A DNA stretch of 42,253 nucleotides, taken from contig CAYHEQ010000004.1 of the NCBI GenBank assembly GCA_964355795.1, positions 1 to 42,253 of the forward strand, in the 5' to 3' direction. Under the pieces are notes generated by a model, which was not told the DNA's origin, made no database searches, and saw only the letters and a list, made by a program, of their open reading frames with translations. A program made the translations under genes and the position numbers. Numbering within the stretch: position 1 is the first letter of the stretch; each line of letters opens with the position of its first letter. Below are positions 20,542 through 41,230 of the stretch, piece after piece. This DNA comes from an uncultured Candidatus Saccharibacteria bacterium (GTDB taxonomy: Bacteria > Patescibacteriota > JACPGU01).

Positions 20542-22305
20542 ATGAGAACAAAAGCGAAAGTCCTGATGGTGTTAATTTTTGTGACTCTGATGTCTCTGCT
20601 TTTGAATACGCCAAGTATTTCCCTAGCGGAAAACAAAACCAAGGATGAACTCCTGCAGGAACTAGAAAATATCAAGAATAGCCAAGACGATTTCATGGGA
20701 GCTGTTACCAACTATCAGGGCAAAAGTAAAAATGCTCTCACCAGTCTGGCTGAAACTCGGGAGCAAGTATTGAAAAACAAAGCCGAGATAGAAAATCTGG
20801 CAGAAAGTATCGAGCAAGCCGAGGAAGAATTGGCCAAAAATAAAAAGGCGCGGATGAGCTTGCTACGCAATTTCTATATCGCTACGACTGGCAAATGGCC
20901 TTTTTTGGAGCTTTTGCAGGCCGAAAGTTTCGGCGACCTCATTCGCCGACAGATCTATATGAAAAACGCTCAAGAAAAAATGGTGGCCGAGATCAAGAAA
21001 TCGGTGGCGGAAGCGCGCTTGCTGGAAGAGGGGAAGCAAGTGGCGACCGTCAAAAGAGAAATAATGCTCTCGCAAATAGACATTTTACATAATCAATTGG
21101 CGTCTTTCAAAAAATCCATCCGAGAAAATGAGGCGAAAATCCGCGATTTGGAAAAAAATAAAAAAGAAGTGGAACAGCAAATCTTGGCGCTAGATCCGCC
21201 GAAAGTCCCACTCAATACCGACGGCAATTCGGCTCTGATTTTGCGATTAAACGAAGTGGATTTCGCCAAACAAAATTATTTAACTATTGAAGGCGCCGGC
21301 ACGCCCCACGGCATAGGAATGAGTCAGTACGGCGCCAAAGCGATGGCCGAGGCCGGCAATGATTTCGAGAAAATCCTGACCCATTATTATCAAGGAACGA
21401 AAATCGGCCAGATCAATACTGATGCTATCAAAATGCGCGTGAAACTCTCCGCTTCCGCTTCTGGTGGCGCTATTATTGTCTCTGGCGGAAAGGCTTTGGG
21501 ACATGAAGGTATCATAGAATCTGGGAGCGCGATCTCCGCTCGTTCGGGGTTACATCTAGAAGCTATTGATGTCTCCACTCGCTTCATCGTTACTTACAAA
21601 TTTAATAAATTTAATTCCTTCCGCGGAGCGATAGATATCGTGGGCTCGGCCGGCAATTTCACGACCGTTAATACCTTGCCGATAGAAGATTATCTGCGCG
21701 GAGTAATCTCCGGGGAGATGTCGTCTTCCTGGCCCAAGGAGGCTCTGAAAGCGCAAGCGGTGGCGGCCAGAAATTACGCGTATAAAAATCTGAAGCCCAA
21801 TGCCTCTTACGACATCTGCGACACGCCGACCTGCCAAGTCTATCACGGCGCTTCTTACGAATTCGTCTCAACAGACCTAGCCATTCGAGAAACCGCGGGA
21901 AAAATGCTCTACTACGGGAGCGAGATTATCACTGCCTACTATTTTTCCACTTCCGGAGGTTGGACGGAAAATAACGAAAATGTTTGGGGCGGCGCGCCTC
22001 GCCCCTACTTGCGCGGCGTGGCTTCTCCCGGAGAAAATTCGCCGTACAATCATTGGACGGTGAAGACTCTGGACAAGACTACGGTGGAGAGATATTTGAA
22101 CGCTGATTCGGATACCGCTATCGGCGATTTACAAAAAATCGAGATCATCAAAAGAGGCGTTTCGGGGCTGGTGATGGCAGTGAAAATCACCGGATCAGCC
22201 GGGGTGAAATTGGTTACCGGCCAAAATTTCAAATATGTTATCAATATCAATCTACCCGACAATGAACCCAGCTACATCAAAAGCGGGCTTTTTGGTGTAC
22301 GCTAA
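20542..22305 (+). CDS. SpoIID/LytB-domain protein with signal anchor and coiled coil
   Basis: The start is moved to ATG 20542 (MRTKAKVLMVLIFVTLMSLLL). Coiled-coil N-terminal half. SpoIID motifs YLRGVISGEM...ALKAQAVAARNYA...CDTPTCQVYHG...YYFSTSGGWTENNENVW. Confidence 0.85.
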   Translation: MRTKAKVLMVLIFVTLMSLLLNTPSISLAENKTKDELLQELENIKNSQDDFMGAVTNYQGKSKNALTSLAETREQVLKNKAEIENLAESIEQAEEELAKNKKARMSLLRNFYIATTGKWPFLELLQAESFGDLIRRQIYMKNAQEKMVAEIKKSVAEARLLEEGKQVATVKREIMLSQIDILHNQLASFKKSIRENEAKIRDLEKNKKEVEQQILALDPPKVPLNTDGNSALILRLNEVDFAKQNYLTIEGAGTPHGIGMSQYGAKAMAEAGNDFEKILTHYYQGTKIGQINTDAIKMRVKLSASASGGAIIVSGGKALGHEGIIESGSAISARSGLHLEAIDVSTRFIVTYKFNKFNSFRGAIDIVGSAGNFTTVNTLPIEDYLRGVISGEMSSSWPKEALKAQAVAARNYAYKNLKPNASYDICDTPTCQVYHGASYEFVSTDLAIRETAGKMLYYGSEIITAYYFSTSGGWTENNENVWGGAPRPYLRGVASPGENSPYNHWTVKTLDKTTVERYLNADSDTAIGDLQKIEIIKRGVSGLVMAVKITGSAGVKLVTGQNFKYVININLPDNEPSYIKSGLFGVR

Positions 22306-22436
22306 TTTCGCTAATTAACTCAAATTACTTGAATAAACAAAATTGTAACTTTCATTTGATTTTTTGCTTAATTTTTGATAGTATTTGTATTCAATAGCCA
22401 ATCCGAATGTTCGGAATGTTTTATCTTTGGCGATTT

Positions 22437-22633
22437 GCGCCCATAGCTCAGTTGGTTAGAGCGCCACTCTTACCCGCCCGCCTGGACTTCGTTTGTGCGC
22501 CTATAGCTCAGTTGGTTAGAGCGCCACTCTTATAAGGTGGATGTCGCTGGTTCAAGTCCAGCTAGGCGCATTCGTCAAGGCGAAGTCGGGCGCGGTAAGG
22601 TGGAAGTCCCTGGTTTCAGCCCCAAGCTGACCT
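22437..22633 (+). pseudogene. disrupted outer tRNA-Ile-like copy split in its anticodon by a 123-nt insert
   Basis: 22437-22472 matches the first 36 nt of the intact tRNA with 1 mismatch. 22596-22633 is a degenerate copy of its 3' half that cannot form a T arm or acceptor stem. Confidence 0.6.
22497..22570 (+). tRNA. tRNA-Ile (anticodon TAT)
   Basis: Manual cloverleaf: acceptor gcgccta/taggcgc, D arm gctc-agttggtta-gagc, anticodon arm ccact-cTTATAa-ggtgg, T arm gctgg-ttcaagt-ccagc. No encoded CCA. Confidence 0.85.
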
Positions 22634-22641
22634 ACCGTAGC

Positions 22642-22730
22642 GCAATCTATTTGGCGAAGAGGAATAATCACCCCCGTCTGCAATGCTTTGCATAGCAATG
22701 CGGGCAGGTATTTCGCCAAGAGATTAAGCG
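22642..22730 (+). repeat. 89-nt structured repeat, copy A
   Basis: Shares a 58-nt core (1 difference) with 23418-23506. The closing helix is ttggcgaa/ttcgccaa. Confidence 0.7.
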
Positions 22731-22797
22731 CAGGGCAGGCAAGTCCATCCACGCGCATTTCGTAAGTGGTAAGCCAAGCCTTTTGTAAAATAAAAAT

Positions 22798-23202
22798 ATG
22801 ATAAAAGATATTATCAGACTTTTTGAAAAACAGAGTAAATTCTCAAAGACCATGATGGCCTTGATTGTCGTGGGAACATTGATGCTGTATTCATCTCTGA
22901 ATATTGTTTATAGGAATTACCAAATCAATAGACAAATAAAGGGTCTGGAGCAAGAAATCGCTTATTTACAAGAAAATAACATTGAACAAAGGAACAGAAT
23001 CCTGTATTATAGTACGGACGCCTTCGCTGAAAAGATTTTGCGACAAAAACTCAATCATCAGAAGGAGGGCGAGAGGGTCTACGCCTTGGCGCGCAAAGAT
23101 CCTGAAAGAGAGAAGTTAGTCAGAGAGCAACAGAAGTATCAAGAAAGGGAGGAGAAAAAAGCGAATATTTTGAAATGGTGGGATTTCTTCTTTAAGCACT
23201 AA
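22798..23202 (+). CDS. FtsB/DivIC-like septum formation initiator
   Basis: Single TM helix (MMALIVVGTLMLYSSL), a coiled coil (QINRQIKGLEQEIAYLQENNIEQRNRI), then DAFAEKILRQKLNHQKEGERVY. Confidence 0.6.
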   Translation: MIKDIIRLFEKQSKFSKTMMALIVVGTLMLYSSLNIVYRNYQINRQIKGLEQEIAYLQENNIEQRNRILYYSTDAFAEKILRQKLNHQKEGERVYALARKDPEREKLVREQQKYQEREEKKANILKWWDFFFKH

Positions 23203-23290
23203 TTGCGCGAATATTTGACTAATTGCGCGAATGAATGATCTCCGAAATGATTAGTGAAATTCGTTAAAAATTCGCGTAATTAGTGTATGT

Positions 23291-23362
23291 CGCGGGGTAG
23301 AGCAGTGGTAGCTCGCAAGGCTCATAACCTTGAGGTCGTGGGTTCAATTCCCACCCCCGCAA
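23291..23362 (+). tRNA. tRNA-Met (CAT), initiator-like
   Basis: Acceptor cgcgggg/ccccgca gives the C1:A72 mismatch typical of bacterial initiator tRNA. Anticodon arm caagg-ctCATaa-ccttg, T arm gtggg-ttcaatt-cccac. Confidence 0.85.
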
Positions 23363-23417
23363 TTTGAAATGTGTTACAGCAAGGATATAGATAGAAAAAC
23401 ATCTCACCCTCCGAAGA

Positions 23418-23506
23418 GCAATCTATGCCGAGAAGAGGAATAATCACCCCCGCCTGCAATGCTTTGCATAGCAATGCGGGCAGGTATTTCGAGGCGAGAT
23501 TAAGCG
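23418..23506 (+). repeat. 89-nt structured repeat, copy B
   Basis: Same core as copy A. The closing helix is gccgagaa/ttcgaggc, with three compensatory pair changes relative to A. Confidence 0.7.
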
Positions 23507-23535
23507 AAGGAGGGGTGTGGTTTTAGAAATAATTA

Positions 23536-23609
23536 GCCAGGGTAGCTCAGTTGGTTAGAGCGTAGGACTCATAAGCCTAAGGTCGAGAGTTCAATCCTCT
23601 CCCCTGGCA
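23536..23609 (+). tRNA. tRNA-Met (CAT), elongator; lysidine-type Ile2 not excluded
   Basis: Acceptor gccaggg/ccctggc, D arm gctc-agttggtta-gagc, anticodon loop ctCATaa, T arm gagag-ttcaatc-ctctc. Confidence 0.85.
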
Positions 23610-23612
23610 TTT

Positions 23613-23903
23613 ATGTTCTATGTATATATACTGCGAAGCACCAAATGCCAAAATTACTATATTGGCGTAAGTAATGATGTAAAAAGAAGATTAAAAGAGC
23701 ATAATAGTGGAATGTCGAAATCTACTAGTCCTTTCCGACCGTTTCTGCTCAAAAGGGTGGAGAGATACTTAACCATCAATGAGGCATACCGAAGGGAAAG
23801 ATTTTTGAAGTCAAAAAAAAGTAAAAAGATTATAGACCTAGTAGTAAAGAGTAGTCCCGACGTTCTTGCGGAGCAAGAAGTCGGGATCCCGATTTTGCGG
23901 TAG
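23613..23903 (+). CDS. GIY-YIG nuclease family protein
   Basis: FYVYILRS...NYYIGVSNDVKRRLKEHN...ERFLK has the GIY/YIG, R, H and E positions. The ATG starts 3 nt after the tRNA 3' end. Confidence 0.85.
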   Translation: MFYVYILRSTKCQNYYIGVSNDVKRRLKEHNSGMSKSTSPFRPFLLKRVERYLTINEAYRRERFLKSKKSKKIIDLVVKSSPDVLAEQEVGIPILR

Positions 23904-23905
23904 CA

Positions 23906-23979
23906 AACATCGGGACTCAGTTGGTTAGAGCACAGCACTCATAACGCTGAGGTCGTGGGTTCGATCCCCGCCCCTGGTA
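23906..23979 (+). pseudogene. tRNA-Met(CAT)-like copy with a damaged 5' acceptor/D region
   Basis: From the D loop onward it is a good tRNA (agttggtta-gagc, ctCATaa, gtggg-ttcgatc-cccgc, 3' acceptor ccctggt). The 5' 12 nt (aacatcgggactc) pair with it at only 4 of 7 acceptor positions. Confidence 0.45.
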
Positions 23980-23988
23980 TTTAGCATT

Positions 23989-24024
23989 CAAAAGCCCCTT
24001 CTTTCATGAGAGACGGGGCTTTTG
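23989..24024. terminator. bidirectional intrinsic terminator
   Basis: caaaagcccc-16 nt-ggggcttttg between the tRNA cluster (+) and doc (-). Confidence 0.6.
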
Positions 24025-24039
24025 CATTATTGAAAAAAT

Positions 24040-24402
24040 TTAAGCGCAATTTTTAGCCAGCCATTCGGAGAGGTCTTTGACGGAGGCGGTAAAAAGATTA
24101 TTTTTGAAAAAATCAAAAGTGGCGGGACTGGAAGCGTCAAATTCTTTTTTATTAATCTTAAGAAAGACAGCCATAGCAGTCAAGGCTGTCGGCAGATTAC
24201 CGGACGCGAAAGGCTTCTTTTTCGCGATAGCGAAAATCAGCGCGCCAGCTTTGTCAAAAAGCGTGGGGAAAACTTCGTTGTTTTTGATGTAGCTGACTGT
24301 TCTTTTCAAAATCTTGGTGTCGCCAATGCCGTCGCGACCTCCTATTTCGGAGGTTACGCGACTATGGATGTATAGTATTTCGGAAGGAGATAAATAATTC
24401 AT
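24040..24402 (-). CDS. Fic/Doc-family toxin-like protein with a degenerate active-site motif
   Basis: Size (120 aa) and pattern (ILYIHSRV...GGRDGI...GALIFAIAKKKPFASGNLPTALTAMAVFL) fit Doc. KPFASGNLPT replaces the HxFx(D/N)(A/G)NKR motif. Confidence 0.65.
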   Translation of the reverse strand: MNYLSPSEILYIHSRVTSEIGGRDGIGDTKILKRTVSYIKNNEVFPTLFDKAGALIFAIAKKKPFASGNLPTALTAMAVFLKINKKEFDASSPATFDFFKNNLFTASVKDLSEWLAKNCA

Positions 24403-24506
24403 TCTGACAATTTTTCTAGGTCTTTCTTGTATTTCTTGATGAATTCTTCAATATGCCGAGCCTTTTCGTCTTCCAGTTGGAAATTGACGAGTGGTTCAAT
24501 ACGAAT
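24399..24506 (-). pseudogene. 3' fragment of an AbrB/MazE-type antitoxin gene, still stop/start coupled to doc
   Basis: Encodes ...EPLVNFQLEDEKARHIEEFIKKYKKDLEKLSE*, a diverged copy of the C-terminal ~35 codons of 24665..24898. Its TGA overlaps the doc ATG (ATGA). Confidence 0.7.
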
Positions 24507-24551
24507 GGCTGGATGATGGTTTGACTTGCAGGAAACCCTTCTTCCTGATCC

Positions 24552-24589
24552 AAGGTTCGACCTTAAAGGATGCCCAAAGGTCGAACCTT
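24552..24589. repeat. 13-bp hairpin with loop AAAGGATGCCCA, copy 2
   Basis: aaggttcgacctt-aaaggatgccca-aaggtcgaacctt. The loop is identical to 20465-20476 and the stem is unrelated. Confidence 0.85.
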
Positions 24590-24664
24590 TTAATTCTTAC
24601 AAATAAGAGAGTAATTAATATACAAATGAAACGATTTGAATTTGTATATTTGTAATGTCTAGAA

Positions 24665-24898
24665 CTACTCTGATAGTTTTTCCAAATCTTTCTTGTATTT
24701 CTTAATAAATTCTTCAATGTGCTGGGCTTTTTCATCTTCCAGCTGGAAATTGACCAGTGGTTCAATAATAATGCGACGATTCTTGCCGTCCACATTGACG
24801 AAAACTTTGTCGCCAATTGCTATCGCCAAATTACCCAAAACTTTTTTGGGGATAGTTACCGCCGCCGAAGAGCCGATTTTGATGATTTTGTTGGCCAC
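24665..24898 (-). CDS. AbrB/MazE/SpoVT-family antitoxin
   Basis: IIKIGSSAAVTIPKKVLGNLAIAIGDKVFVNVDG looped-hinge-helix pattern, 77 aa. Confidence 0.75.
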   Translation of the reverse strand: MANKIIKIGSSAAVTIPKKVLGNLAIAIGDKVFVNVDGKNRRIIIEPLVNFQLEDEKAQHIEEFIKKYKKDLEKLSE

Positions 24899-32308: not shown

Positions 32309-33604
32309 TCACAGGTTTTTGCTCGACGCGACCTCAAAATTCATTTTGCTTAATTGCTTAATTGGTTTTTTGGTTAATTGGAACAAAGCGCAGGTCGCGA
32401 CCATTGTCGCGTTGTCGCCACAGTATTTGAGAGGGGGTAGAACGAGATTTGGATGTCCGACATCGAACCCGCTAGATGACGGACATCTCAGCTCACCTAG
32501 AGTAATCGCCATTTTTTCGCGCAAACGTTTGTTGGCGGCGACGCCTCCGGCGATAGAGATGGTCTTGGCTTTGTATTTTTGCGCGGCGCGGATAGTTTTC
32601 GCCACCAAAACATCAGTGGCGGCTTCTTCAAATTCGTAGGCGAACGATCCTTTTCGCGCTTCAGCCGAGGTCGCACCTCCGTCCGCTACGCTCTCCGAGG
32701 AACGACCCCCACTTTCGCGTTGCCAAGCATACAAAACGGCAGTTTTGAGACCGGAAAAGGAAAAATTGAGGTCCTTGCTGTCTAGCATAGGACGAGGGAA
32801 GGTTAGGCCAGTGTTGAGTGTTGAGTGTTGAGTGTTGAGTTTAGGATTTTGAATTTGAGATTTGTTTGTGTTTTGTGAAGTTTGTGTTTTGTGAAGTTTT
32901 TTTCGGTATTCATCCGCATATCGCGAGACGCTCGGTCCTCCGGGGTATCCCAACCCCAAAATCCTCGCCACTTTATCAAAGGCCTCCCCCGCCGCGTCAT
33001 CCAAGGTCTCGCCCAGCGTCTGATATTGACCATGGTCTTTCATTAAAATAAGCGAGGTATGCCCACCAGAGACCAGCAATATGATTGCTGGAAATTCGAA
33101 GGGGGTTGCGTTTAGGTTGAAATTTTGGATTTGTAATTTGTTTGTGTTTTGTGTTTTGTAATTTGTGTTTTCGCGAATTTTATCGGAGATAAAATTCGCG
33201 TAGATGTGTCCCTCCAAATGATTCACCGGTATCAAGGGCTTCCCCCACGCCAGCGCCAATGATTTGGCGGTATTAACGCCTACCAGAAGCGAGCCAATCA
33301 GCCCTGGATAGGCGGTAACGGCGATAGCGTCTATCTGTCGAGGTGTCACCTCGGCATCTTTGAACGCCTTATCAATGACAGAGATGATCTGCTCCACATG
33401 AGCGCGAGAAGCCACTTCTGGCACCACCCCGCCGGTTAAAGCGTGGATATCCACTTGAGAGGCAATAACAGATGACAAAACGTGTGCTCCTTTTTGAAGT
33501 CGCACTTCGTCTGGTGCCGAAGAACGACTTCTTTGAGGAGCGCGCAACTCCACCACCGAAGCGGCCGTCTCATCACAACTTGTTTCAATGCCTAGAATAA
33601 TCAT
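32309..33604 (-). CDS. tsaD: tRNA N6-adenosine threonylcarbamoyltransferase TsaD (insertion-rich)
   Basis: MIILGIETSCDETAASVV, NHLEGHIYANF, VSGGHTSL, GGVAANKRLRE. At 431 aa it is clearly longer than the family norm because of several inserts. Confidence 0.9.
   Translation of the reverse strand: MIILGIETSCDETAASVVELRAPQRSRSSAPDEVRLQKGAHVLSSVIASQVDIHALTGGVVPEVASRAHVEQIISVIDKAFKDAEVTPRQIDAIAVTAYPGLIGSLLVGVNTAKSLALAWGKPLIPVNHLEGHIYANFISDKIRENTNYKTQNTNKLQIQNFNLNATPFEFPAIILLVSGGHTSLILMKDHGQYQTLGETLDDAAGEAFDKVARILGLGYPGGPSVSRYADEYRKKLHKTQTSQNTNKSQIQNPKLNTQHSTLNTGLTFPRPMLDSKDLNFSFSGLKTAVLYAWQRESGGRSSESVADGGATSAEARKGSFAYEFEEAATDVLVAKTIRAAQKYKAKTISIAGGVAANKRLREKMAITLGELRCPSSSGFDVGHPNLVLPPLKYCGDNATMVATCALFQLTKKPIKQLSKMNFEVASSKNL
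32810..32898. repeat. tandem repeats inside tsaD
   Basis: gtgttga x4 (32810-32837) and ttgtgttttgtgaagt x2 (32865-32896), encoding ...KKLHKTQTSQNTNKSQIQNPKLNTQHSTLNT.... Confidence 0.85.
33108..33172. repeat. T/G-rich stuttered repeat inside tsaD
   Basis: gcgtttaggttgaaattttggatttgtaatttgtttgtgttttgtgttttgtaatttgtgtttt encodes ...RENTNYKTQNTNKLQIQNFNLNA.... Confidence 0.8.
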
Positions 33605-40551: not shown

Positions 40552-40658
40552 GGCAAAGGATGTCTCTTGACGCGTATATGCATTGCATATACAATGTATA
40601 TATATGACAAAATCCAAATGCCAAAGCTCAAATGTCAAATAATACTAATTCCAAGACT

Positions 40659-40973
40659 ATGAATGCCGTCATTAATTTCAAGACCGACAAAAAGATCAAG
40701 ACAGAGGCGCAGAAGATCGCGGGACAAATGGGGCTCACCCTCTCTGATGTGATGAATCTTTATTTGAGAGAGTTTATCGTGAAAAAGGAGTTGCTTGTTA
40801 CTGCCCACCAAGATGAATCGCGACCCTCAAAGATGCTCCTTGGCGCGATAAAAGAATCCAGAAGAAACCTCCGAGATGGTGATATTTCTCCCGCTTTTTC
40901 CAACGCCAAAAACGCTATTTCTTGGCTCAATAGCAAAAACAAAAAGTTCCAAAACGGCAAAATATGCCGCTAA
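40659..40973 (+). CDS. RelB/DinJ-family antitoxin (second copy)
   Basis: MNAVINFKTDKKIKTEAQKIAGQMGLTLSDVMNLYLREFI parallels the 31773 protein from its first residue. The track start at 40632 adds 9 residues. Confidence 0.8.
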   Translation: MNAVINFKTDKKIKTEAQKIAGQMGLTLSDVMNLYLREFIVKKELLVTAHQDESRPSKMLLGAIKESRRNLRDGDISPAFSNAKNAISWLNSKNKKFQNGKICR

Positions 40974-41230
40974 TCAGATTTGATAAGAAGTTTGTCAAAC
41001 AATACGATAAAGCAGATCCACAAATCCGCTGGTCTTTTGATAGAAGATTAGAGTTATTAATGACCAACAAAAACAGTCCTCTACTGGGACTGCACAAGCT
41101 CCATGGTCAATATTCGGGTTGTTGGAGCATAAATATTACTGGTGACTGGAGGGCTATTTTTCAAGAGATAAATGAGCAACAAACTATTTTTTTCATCGCC
41201 ATCGGCACTCACAGCCAGCTATATAAATAA
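40964..41230 (+). CDS. RelE/YafQ-family toxin (second copy)
   Basis: FDKKFVKQYDK...HKLHGQYSGCWSINITGDWRAIFQ...IFFIAIGTHSQLYK. Overlaps the antitoxin by 10 nt. Confidence 0.8.
   Translation: MPLIRFDKKFVKQYDKADPQIRWSFDRRLELLMTNKNSPLLGLHKLHGQYSGCWSINITGDWRAIFQEINEQQTIFFIAIGTHSQLYK

Follow-up and report, generated by a model that had tools for sequence, protein, structure and literature searches.

A tRNA-Ile Gene Flanked by Complementary Arms Inside the Anticodon Loop of an Older tRNA-Ile Copy, and Related Nested tRNA Genes in Patescibacteria

Architecture of the Nested tRNA-Ile Locus

The DNA stretch analyzed here (42,253 nt, contig CAYHEQ010000004.1 of assembly GCA_964355795.1, deposited as an uncultured Candidatus Saccharibacteria bacterium; hereafter the window) contains on its plus strand an intact tRNA-Ile(UAU) gene that lies within the anticodon loop of a second, interrupted tRNA-Ile copy. 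This outer copy starts with a piece (22437..22472) that corresponds to tRNA positions 1-36 and comprises the 5' strand of the acceptor stem, the D arm, the 5' strand of the anticodon stem and the loop bases CTTA. It is followed by a left arm, CCCGCCCGCCTGGACTTCG (22473-22491), which together with the 5-nt spacer TTTGT occupies 22473..22496, by the intact inner gene (22497..22570), which appears to be the working one, and by a segment (22571..22595) that consists of the 3' flank of the inner gene (TTCGTCAAGG) and a right arm, CGAAGTCGGGCGCGG (22581-22595), complementary to the left arm. The second piece of the outer copy (22596..22615; positions 37-56) contributes TAA, the 3' strand of the anticodon stem, the variable loop, the 5' strand of the T stem and TT. 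Here, in the outer T loop, the gene is interrupted again by a second insert (22616..22739), a composite hairpin (repeat D2, 22627-22734) with a 36-nt hairpin (22673-22708) at its tip, before a third piece (22740..22757; positions 57-74) supplies the remaining T loop, the 3' strands of the T and acceptor stems and the discriminator base.

The first outer piece repeats the start of the inner gene with one mismatch (35/36 identical nucleotides, or 36/37 for 22436-22472 versus 22496-22532 in the repeat search; repeat family D3, blastn E-value 2.6e-10 within the window), and 22596-22622 is identical to 22533-22559 at 22 of 27 positions (family D4). The outer anticodon loop resumes at 22596 (TAAGGTGG...) as the exact continuation of the interruption, and direct reading confirms that removal of 22473-22595 (123 nt) recreates the loop CTTA|TAA. 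The insertion point is located between anticodon positions 35 and 36, at the center of the palindrome CTTA^TAAG. ARAGORN identified the inner gene as a complete tRNA-Ile(UAU), which also matches the Rfam tRNA model with 74.8 bits, and the arms CCCGCCCGCCTGGACTTCG and CGAAGTCGGGCGCGG pair with each other in the predicted fold. All of this agrees with a preliminary description of the locus, made from the letters alone, that had reported an intact tRNA with pairing arms inside the anticodon of a degenerate copy of itself.

The minimum-energy fold is a single long rod in which the arm helix connects the outer anticodon stem with the inner acceptor stem (z-score -3.4 as RNA and -4.6 as DNA). This continuous rod has small internal loops and lacks a bulge-helix-bulge motif, as no two 3-nt bulges 4 bp apart are present. 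No ribozyme core was detected by Rfam searches at the gathering threshold, and with E-values up to 5 over 22300-24100 only tRNA matches were obtained; intron families were considered and rejected, the Rfam search having returned tRNA alone. Within the insert the inner gene is flanked by 3 nt on its 5' side and about 7-10 nt on its 3' side. This 3' flank resembles both the native flank after the outer 3' end (TTTCGTAAG) and the corresponding flank at locus L317 of a related genome (TTTATCAA). With its inverted-repeat ends, its shortness and its lack of coding capacity, the 123-nt insert is in these respects like miniature inverted-repeat transposable elements (MITEs) and other palindromic elements.

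An artefact of assembly or binning is a conceivable source of such an arrangement, because tRNA D arms are common to many genomes of a sample and contigs break there. However, the window is matched colinearly by contigs of three replicate assemblies, which cover 21145-23923, 22043-23615, and 22668-24783, respectively. Single-run contigs in X1, X2, and X3 cross 22443-22532 (outer 5' half, left arm and inner 5' half) with zero mismatches, and a further single-run contig spans the inner 3' part and the right arm. In addition, a homologous structure occurs in L317 on a 312-kb contig, and the same architecture is found in about 35 other genomes obtained with different assemblers. The nested order is genuine, and the assembly error that the preliminary description had named as a possible refutation has a negligible probability.

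The Outer Copy Is Cut Twice and Its Stems Are Broken

The outer 3' half had initially been regarded as decayed, with neither a T arm nor acceptor pairing. This view is incomplete, as the 3' end has been displaced by the second insert and resumes at 22740-22757, where it reads CAAGTCCATCCACGCGCA. According to local alignment, the outer T loop is split as TT|CAAGT by this 124-nt insert. When joined, the outer pieces amount to 74 nt, 68 of which are identical to the inner gene (68/74). Local alignment gives 18/20 identical nucleotides for piece 2 and 14/18 for piece 3, and the latter does not pair with piece 1. After removal of both inserts ARAGORN predicts a weak tRNA-Ile(tat) with 4/7 acceptor and 3/5 T-stem pairs, so that 5 of the 12 pairs of these two stems are broken; after removal of the first insert alone it calls no tRNA.

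The second insert (22616-22739) folds with a z-score of -3.3. Its repeat D2 has another copy at 23403-23510 (86% identity over about 108 nt) that shows compensatory differences in the outer stem. This copy sits between the genes for tRNA-fMet and tRNA-Met, and no Rfam family matches D2. The 36-nt hairpin at 22673-22708 reaches a word depth of 470-775 in groundwater runs, compared to about 5 for its flanks, and is missing from some contigs of four runs (joint 22672>22709). Small hairpins at this locus are thus abundant, variable in presence and nested in each other. The same 36-nt hairpin, also present at 23449-23484, occurs in many different contexts and could either be a very abundant mobile hairpin of the community or, possibly, a repeat resembling clustered regularly interspaced short palindromic repeats (CRISPR).

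Relatives and History of the Locus

In two more distant relatives, L322 and L004, one plain tRNA-Ile(UAU) gene precedes the gene for a DivIC-like protein. The 3' end of the L322 gene at this syntenic locus (...GATGGTTCAAGTCCATCCACGCGCA TTT) is identical to piece 3 of the window (CAAGTCCATCCACGCGCA TTT) in 18 of 18 positions plus the following TTT. The inner gene is of another type, with the T stem GCTGG/CCAGC where piece 3 has CCATC, and with the acceptor sequence TAGGCGC instead of CACGCGC. Therefore, it is the outer shell that represents the original resident, and the inner gene, being of a different type, arrived later.

A closer relative, L317, whose polynucleotide phosphorylase (PNPase) is 89% identical to that of the window, contains an outer 5' half with a 16-nt insert in the D loop that likewise ends at CTTA (33/36 identities with piece 1 of the window). 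It continues with a homologous but diverged left arm (CGCCC..GCCT.GACTT; 14/17 aligned bases), an intact tRNA-Ile of the new type, the native flank and DivIC; the right arm and the outer 3' half are absent from this locus. As judged from these sequences, the simplest reading would be that the nesting predates the split between the window and L317, and that L317 later lost its 3' side through a deletion bounded by the direct repeat of the 3' parts. The inner genes of both loci differ solely in two compensatory acceptor pairs, which argues that the inner gene is under selection. In L319 (PNPase 69% identical), a pseudogene of the old type is followed in tandem by an intact tRNA-Ile of the new type; the D loop of this pseudogene is interrupted by a 47-nt hairpin (CCCGCCCGC...GCGGGCGGG), and its T loop contains a further insert.

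The outer copy is a mosaic. At acceptor position 7 the outer 5' half follows its own inner gene, with A in the window and G in L317, and the outer pieces of the window that adjoin the insert are similar to the inner gene, whereas the piece beyond the second insert is ancestral. We infer that gene conversion took place between close direct repeats and that the second insert halted it; an equal picture would result if co-conversion had accompanied the insertion itself.

The Arms Occur as a Solo Hairpin

The arms also exist without a tRNA gene between them. On a metagenome contig with 48% G+C (L164), CCCGCCCGCCTGGACTTCG-TCCATG-CGAAGTCGGGCGGG forms a solo hairpin in AT-rich intergenic DNA; its left arm is identical to the left arm of the window in 19 of 19 positions and the asymmetric 5-nt bulge is shared as well. 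On a contig from an unrelated run (X7), the left and right arms of the window are joined by a single C, and the flanks are unlike those of the window. Compared to these solo copies, which place the hairpin in several contexts as would be expected of a palindromic element, the tRNA gene of the window, with 3 + 7 nt of flank, occupies the hairpin tip. On a contig from run X1, an inner 3' part and right arm identical to those of the window lead into a different sequence with the appearance of a tRNA 3' part.

An exact search of the metagenome collection for the 36-nt tRNA half gave no match. A metagenome scan with a 16-mer of the arm was unspecific, as all matches but one were chance matches in high-GC DNA. 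Integron-like core sites (GTTAAAT/ATTTAAC) were considered as an alternative identity of the arms but are present in some arms only, and none of the target rules of IS200/IS605-, IS91- or serine-recombinase-like elements suits the junctions.

Nested tRNA Genes in Other Genomes

The architecture is not restricted to this locus. One genome per species was scanned for two copies of the common D arm GCTCAGTTGGTTAGAGC that are 17-47 nt apart, a spacing impossible for two normal tRNA genes. The scan retrieved 70 loci, 41 of them from records named as Patescibacteria lineages. About 35 of the 70 are true nestings with the same anticodon inside and outside, mostly in Patescibacteria. The nested isoacceptors are Met, Val-CAC, Val-UAC, Val-GAC, Ile-GAU (L060) and Ile-UAU, the last of which is found in L018, L055, L058, and L075 besides the window. 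Nest sites are the anticodon loop or stem, or, for the outer layers of L014 and L044, the D loop.

Several families of arms can be distinguished by their junctions. Arms with the tips TTCA-CCCCG...CGGGG-CARR replace a CA of the anticodon loop, and in L018 and L055 they are present in flipped orientation relative to the tRNA. On Val-GAC, arms with the tips TCC...GGA join position 35 to position 41. Arms with the tips CCTGCCCGCC...GGCAGGCGGG are inserted cleanly at 37|38; such clean 37|38 insertions occur in L050, L066, and L067. A further, AT-rich family is found in Saccharimonadia. In two arm families, positions 36-40 of the target (5 nt) are lost, and in others 2 nt. The outer copies of the 5-nt-deleting families still look intact despite this loss, so that an intact outer copy indicates a recent insertion rather than function.

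Nests can be layered, with four layers in L025 and three in L067, L015, and L044. In these loci, which resemble Russian dolls and include L025 (6440-6780), L067, L015, L044, and L014, up to four tRNA-Val copies lie inside each other, with the arms repeated. L018 and L055 contain the same two tRNA-Ile types with identical arms, nested in opposite order. The nests of L025 and L076 are self-identical. A comparison of the acceptor and T stems of outer and inner copies in 21 cleanly parsed pairs revealed 78 compensatory double changes and 4 broken pairs. Hence, the two copies evolved as separate working tRNAs before they were nested, and the inner gene is usually no local copy. Solo hairpins within tRNA sequences were, in the cases read (the second insert of the window, L018, L014, L055, and L319), always located in outer or pseudogene copies.

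No integrase, transposase or other linked enzyme was identified with Pfam among 138 open reading frames (ORFs) around 37 nested loci, where housekeeping genes were found. Among 2.9 million viral contigs, 0 matched the D-arm spacing pattern. The matches to a looser arm pattern were due to chance, with no tRNA between the arms, and a phage origin was rejected on these grounds.

Some further structures were encountered alongside these nests. In the Saccharimonadia (L010, L040, L052, L057, L063, and L069), a tRNA-Met with AT-rich arms is nested in the anticodon stem, and in most of these cases the outer copy carries a further insert of about 55-100 nt in its anticodon loop; in L057 (7250-7600) a third 3' fragment lies further out. 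A contig from a compost run joins the upstream flank and the outer acceptor of L057 straight to an uninterrupted tRNA body (joint 7257>7309), which suggests variation in presence and absence, or else recombination between repeats that led to a collapse. RNA-labelled compost runs also contain a nested tRNA-Met of Saccharimonadia, but these contigs cannot separate DNA variants from spliced RNA. L019, L020, L021, L031, L064, and L072 (Levyibacteriota, Acidobacteriota, and Chloroflexota) represent a different class. Here a complete tRNA is preceded by a 5' tRNA fragment in which a perfect GC hairpin takes the place of the anticodon arm, and in those read the next feature is an ORF that starts with a GIY-YIG-like motif (for example, MAFVYILRS...). 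Finally, the tRNA-Phe(GAA) that ARAGORN predicts for L062 (4880-5189) would be interrupted after position 35 by an intron of 236 nt, which may belong to group I.

Proposed Insertion of a Hairpin-Armed tRNA Cassette

The recurrence of nesting in dozens of Patescibacteria genomes points to a small mobile cassette, which would disrupt a tRNA gene and deliver a substitute. For the window, we consider it reasonably probable that the pseudogene shell goes back to a DNA-level insertion, the inserted unit being a non-autonomous tRNA cassette with hairpin arms. The earlier suggestion that the locus is the scar of a tRNA-targeting element fits with the solo arms, with the presence of the architecture in many genomes and with the outer copy being the old resident. 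Its second suggestion, an intron-like insertion, found no support: neither a group I or group II core nor a bulge-helix-bulge motif was detected, and the outer exons form no sound tRNA even without the inserts.

According to this cassette model, the DivIC-like gene would originally have been preceded directly by one resident tRNA-Ile(UAU) gene, as in L322 and L004. A 123-nt non-coding cassette, namely a tRNA-Ile gene with short flanks at the tip of a GC-rich hairpin element, would then have entered the center of the palindromic anticodon loop CTTA^TAAG at the DNA level, thereby destroying the resident gene and at the same time supplying a replacement that has presumably been the functional gene ever since. 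The inner gene is probably transcribed from the old upstream promoter region, and ordinary 5' and 3' tRNA-processing enzymes may cut the tRNA from the rod-shaped precursor. The outer shell would have been free to decay, with the acquisition of a second hairpin in the T loop and the loss of stem pairing; its parts beside the cassette may have been homogenized with the inner copy by gene conversion, while the piece past the second insert kept its ancestral sequence. Flipped arms, transition-only mismatches at the arm tips and the preference for tRNA-gene loops and hairpin tips argue against an RNA intron and for the recognition of stem-loops in DNA. The recurring junction rules, which vary between arm families (CA replaced, 35|41, clean 37|38), point to an enzyme that reads DNA hairpin loops. 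Such a trans-acting enzyme would recognize the hairpin or loop structure, probably in single-stranded DNA, and the cassette may move as a unit.

Several observations weigh against this model. The insert is not accompanied by a target-site duplication (CTTA|insert|TAAGG has no duplicated bases), and a second copy of the arms is found nowhere else in the 42-kb window. The left arm is perfectly conserved in a solo hairpin from an unrelated sample, yet that of L317 is diverged, which is hard to fit with one old insertion. No enzyme, no transposition intermediate and no pair of empty and filled sites for this locus were seen. Finally, the flanks of the inner gene are like those of the outer copy, and at 68/74 identity between the two a local origin of the inner copy would be possible in this particular case.

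Such a local origin could take the form of a rescue, in which a solo hairpin hit the anticodon loop of the only tRNA-Ile(UAU) gene. To repair a break at the hairpin tip, the intact gene with its nearest flanks (-3 to about +7) would then have been copied from a sister chromosome, so that the inner gene would descend from the resident instead of being imported. The few-nucleotide loop of the solo hairpin, exactly at the place of the tRNA, is readily accommodated by this scenario, as are the close similarity of the inner and outer copies and of their short flanks, and the self-identical nests of L025 and L076. However, the inner gene (CCAGC, TAGGCGC) and the resident are not the same gene, as piece 3 (CCATC, CACGCGC) matches L322. 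Rescue is further contradicted by the 78 compensatory changes across 21 pairs and requires a lethal intermediate or several chromosome copies per cell. The contig from X1, with the identical inner 3' part and right arm but a different sequence afterward, is an additional hint in the same direction, and overall we regard local rescue as unlikely. A simple tandem duplication with subsequent deletions would resemble L319, where a dead copy is followed by a live one, but the same base, 35|36, would have to be broken twice independently. The preliminary description had named simple tandem copies in related genomes as evidence that would overturn its reading. Such copies are seen as a dead/live pair in L319; L317 has the outer 5' half, the arm and the inner tRNA instead, and L322 and L004 possess a single gene.

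Serial site-specific integration by tyrosine-integrase islands, followed by the loss of nearly all island DNA, would interpret the partial tRNA duplicates as att scars. Anticodon and T loops of tRNA genes are classic targets of such islands, and partial duplicates are left, as stated in PMC9897764; moreover, the window contains other short gene-end duplications. Nevertheless, we consider this scenario improbable, since there is no integrase in the 42 kb or beside the 37 nested loci, the whole insert of 123 nt includes no island DNA, and complementary arms with conserved tips as well as multi-layer nests are unlike att scars. Furthermore, the 5' half is duplicated with a complete gene within, and both halves of the old gene flank it in place of a direct repeat of the 3' part. 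Even less credit can be given to a design at the RNA level, in which the insert would be a tRNA-containing intron: RNase P and RNase Z would free the inner tRNA and the arm helix would hold the outer halves together for cleavage and ligation, with both tRNAs as products. The neat rod fold is consistent with this, as is the 2-bp closing helix of one arm family, which tolerates only U-A and U-G, and some arm families are inserted cleanly at 37|38, the canonical intron site (L050, L066, and L067). In the window, however, the outer copy is unsound, with its second 124-nt insert and only 4/7 acceptor and 3/5 T-stem pairs; other arm families delete 2 or 5 nt of their target, the arm orientation can be flipped, and no intron family was matched in Rfam. 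A splicing endonuclease is not known from bacteria.

Beyond the single locus, the cassette model leads to a broader proposal, which we put forward tentatively: Patescibacteria might harbor a hitherto unrecognized class of structure-targeting mobile hairpins that insert in DNA loops, carry whole tRNA genes, nest in their own cargo and swap tRNA alleles between species. Within tRNA genes they would target the anticodon, D, and T loops, and elsewhere the tips of hairpins, which would make these elements self-compensating "gene-replacement" parasites of translation. In a still bolder version, both tRNAs of the clean-insertion families would be made by RNA-level excision, as the first case of protein-dependent tRNA splicing in bacteria. 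If the cassette model is true, tiny cassettes equipped with a substitute are overwriting essential tRNA genes that reduced genomes possess in single copy, and tRNA alleles can be replaced horizontally without an island, a phage or a nearby recombinase. Unusual tRNA fragments in annotations of Patescibacteria, as well as tRNA calls that are missed or duplicated, would be accounted for in this way, and the dead shells would serve as natural markers for dating insertions. The layered nests and the pairs of solo and loaded hairpins make the idea testable in the few culturable and manipulable Patescibacteria.

Genomic Context

According to Pfam, the window is a housekeeping stretch of a Patescibacteria chromosome that encodes GroEL, elongation factor P, SSB, PNPase, a class I tRNA synthetase, TsaD, and PolA. 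The PNPase encoded there shares 89% identity with the protein of a "Candidatus Microgenomates bacterium", and matches named as "Patescibacteria group bacterium" come next; contigs with identical genes originate from assemblies of 0.1-µm-filtered groundwater. The nested tRNA locus is bordered by a gene for a SpoIID-domain protein and the DivIC-like gene. Pfam scans of most larger ORFs of the window, together with the ORFs near nested loci, yielded housekeeping functions, toxin-antitoxin pairs and one GIY-YIG gene. In the 42-kb window these scans revealed no integrase or transposase and no gene for a tRNA splicing endonuclease or ligase. A consensus scan found no clear plus-strand promoter for the tRNA locus; a weak match (TTGATT-17-TAGTAT, with TG before it) was noticed by eye about 50 nt upstream. 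None of the RNA runs contains this locus.

About 1 kb downstream of the nest, an intact tRNA-Met(CAU) gene (23536-23609) is followed after 3 nt by an ORF for a 96-aa GIY-YIG nuclease (23613-23903; Pfam E-value 9e-14). Behind this ORF lies a second tRNA-Met copy (23912-23975; Rfam 33.8 bits) that lacks its first ~10 nt, and both copies in 23536-23975 are followed by the same 4 nt. L317 and L322 have plain tRNA-fMet and tRNA-Met genes at this place. The region 23536-23975 looks like a GIY-YIG element that imported its own tRNA-Met and displaced the resident one. The window furthermore contains short direct repeats with 83-88% identity (26013-26079/26914-26980, 18891-19015/19360-19484, 24403-24507/24669-24773, and 38871-38953/41272-41354). 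In the case of 26013-26079/26914-26980, a piece of the 3' end of the class I tRNA-synthetase gene recurs beyond a gene for a NYN nuclease, and small genes seem to have been inserted at these repeats together with a replacement for the displaced gene end. The TsaD homolog (32312-33604; 431 aa) is matched by the Pfam model in two stretches and may carry an insertion. In its vicinity are a RelB/YafQ toxin-antitoxin pair (40632-41227) and a lone Fic gene (24040-24402), which in relatives is paired with MazE and adjoins the tRNA-Ile locus.

Comparison with Known Systems

The known relatives of this feature (integrative islands, palindromic repeats, archaeal introns, and group I introns) each share one or two traits with it, and at least one defining trait of each is absent here. 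MITEs, repetitive extragenic palindromic (REP) elements and the Rickettsia palindromic elements are small non-autonomous palindromic repeats of bacteria, the last of which sit inside genes. The nested cassettes resemble them in being short and non-coding, with inverted-repeat ends, many copies and contexts, and variation in presence and absence. However, we know of no palindromic element that has a tRNA gene at its tip or prefers the loops of tRNA genes, and the cassettes differ from such elements by the absence of a target-site duplication here and of a linked transposase in the neighborhoods examined. Group I introns occur in the anticodon loops of bacterial tRNA genes, and the insertion within such a loop is shared with the window. 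In contrast, the cassette is devoid of a ribozyme core, is at 123 nt too short and mostly tRNA, and its exons rejoin to no functional tRNA. Free-standing GIY-YIG homing endonuclease genes can adjoin tRNA genes, as segB does in the tRNA cluster of phage T4. They likewise represent selfish elements tied to the duplication or replacement of a tRNA gene, and the window contains such a case at 23536-23975, 1 kb from the nest; the tRNA-Ile cassette, however, encodes no protein and has different junctions.

Genomic islands and prophages integrate in tRNA genes, including their anticodon and T loops, and leave partial duplicates (Williams, 2002; reviewed in PMC9897764). As in the nests, the target is a tRNA gene whose function is preserved by the arriving sequence, and the old gene persists as a partial duplicate. 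The cassette nevertheless measures 123 nt, comes without an integrase, brings a whole tRNA rather than a 3' part, has complementary arms and is nested repeatedly. Among Archaea, mobile tRNA introns and tri-split tRNAs are described as helix-forming inserts that apparently transpose between tRNAs (Fujishima, 2010, as cited in PMC10714607). These inserts are also short, form helices and occur at several tRNA positions, and complementary leaders hold the halves together. Their removal or joining, however, takes place at the RNA level, where a splicing endonuclease acts on a bulge-helix-bulge motif, and it is the interrupted tRNA that functions. In contrast, the host of the nests is bacterial, no such motif was seen and the interrupted copy of the window is dead. 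In the full-text literature searched, neither nested tRNA genes nor tRNA-carrying hairpins are described for these bacteria, which is absence of evidence only. The feature thus joins traits of target-restoring insertions with those of palindromic mobile elements, and there is a fair chance that it represents a new class of element.

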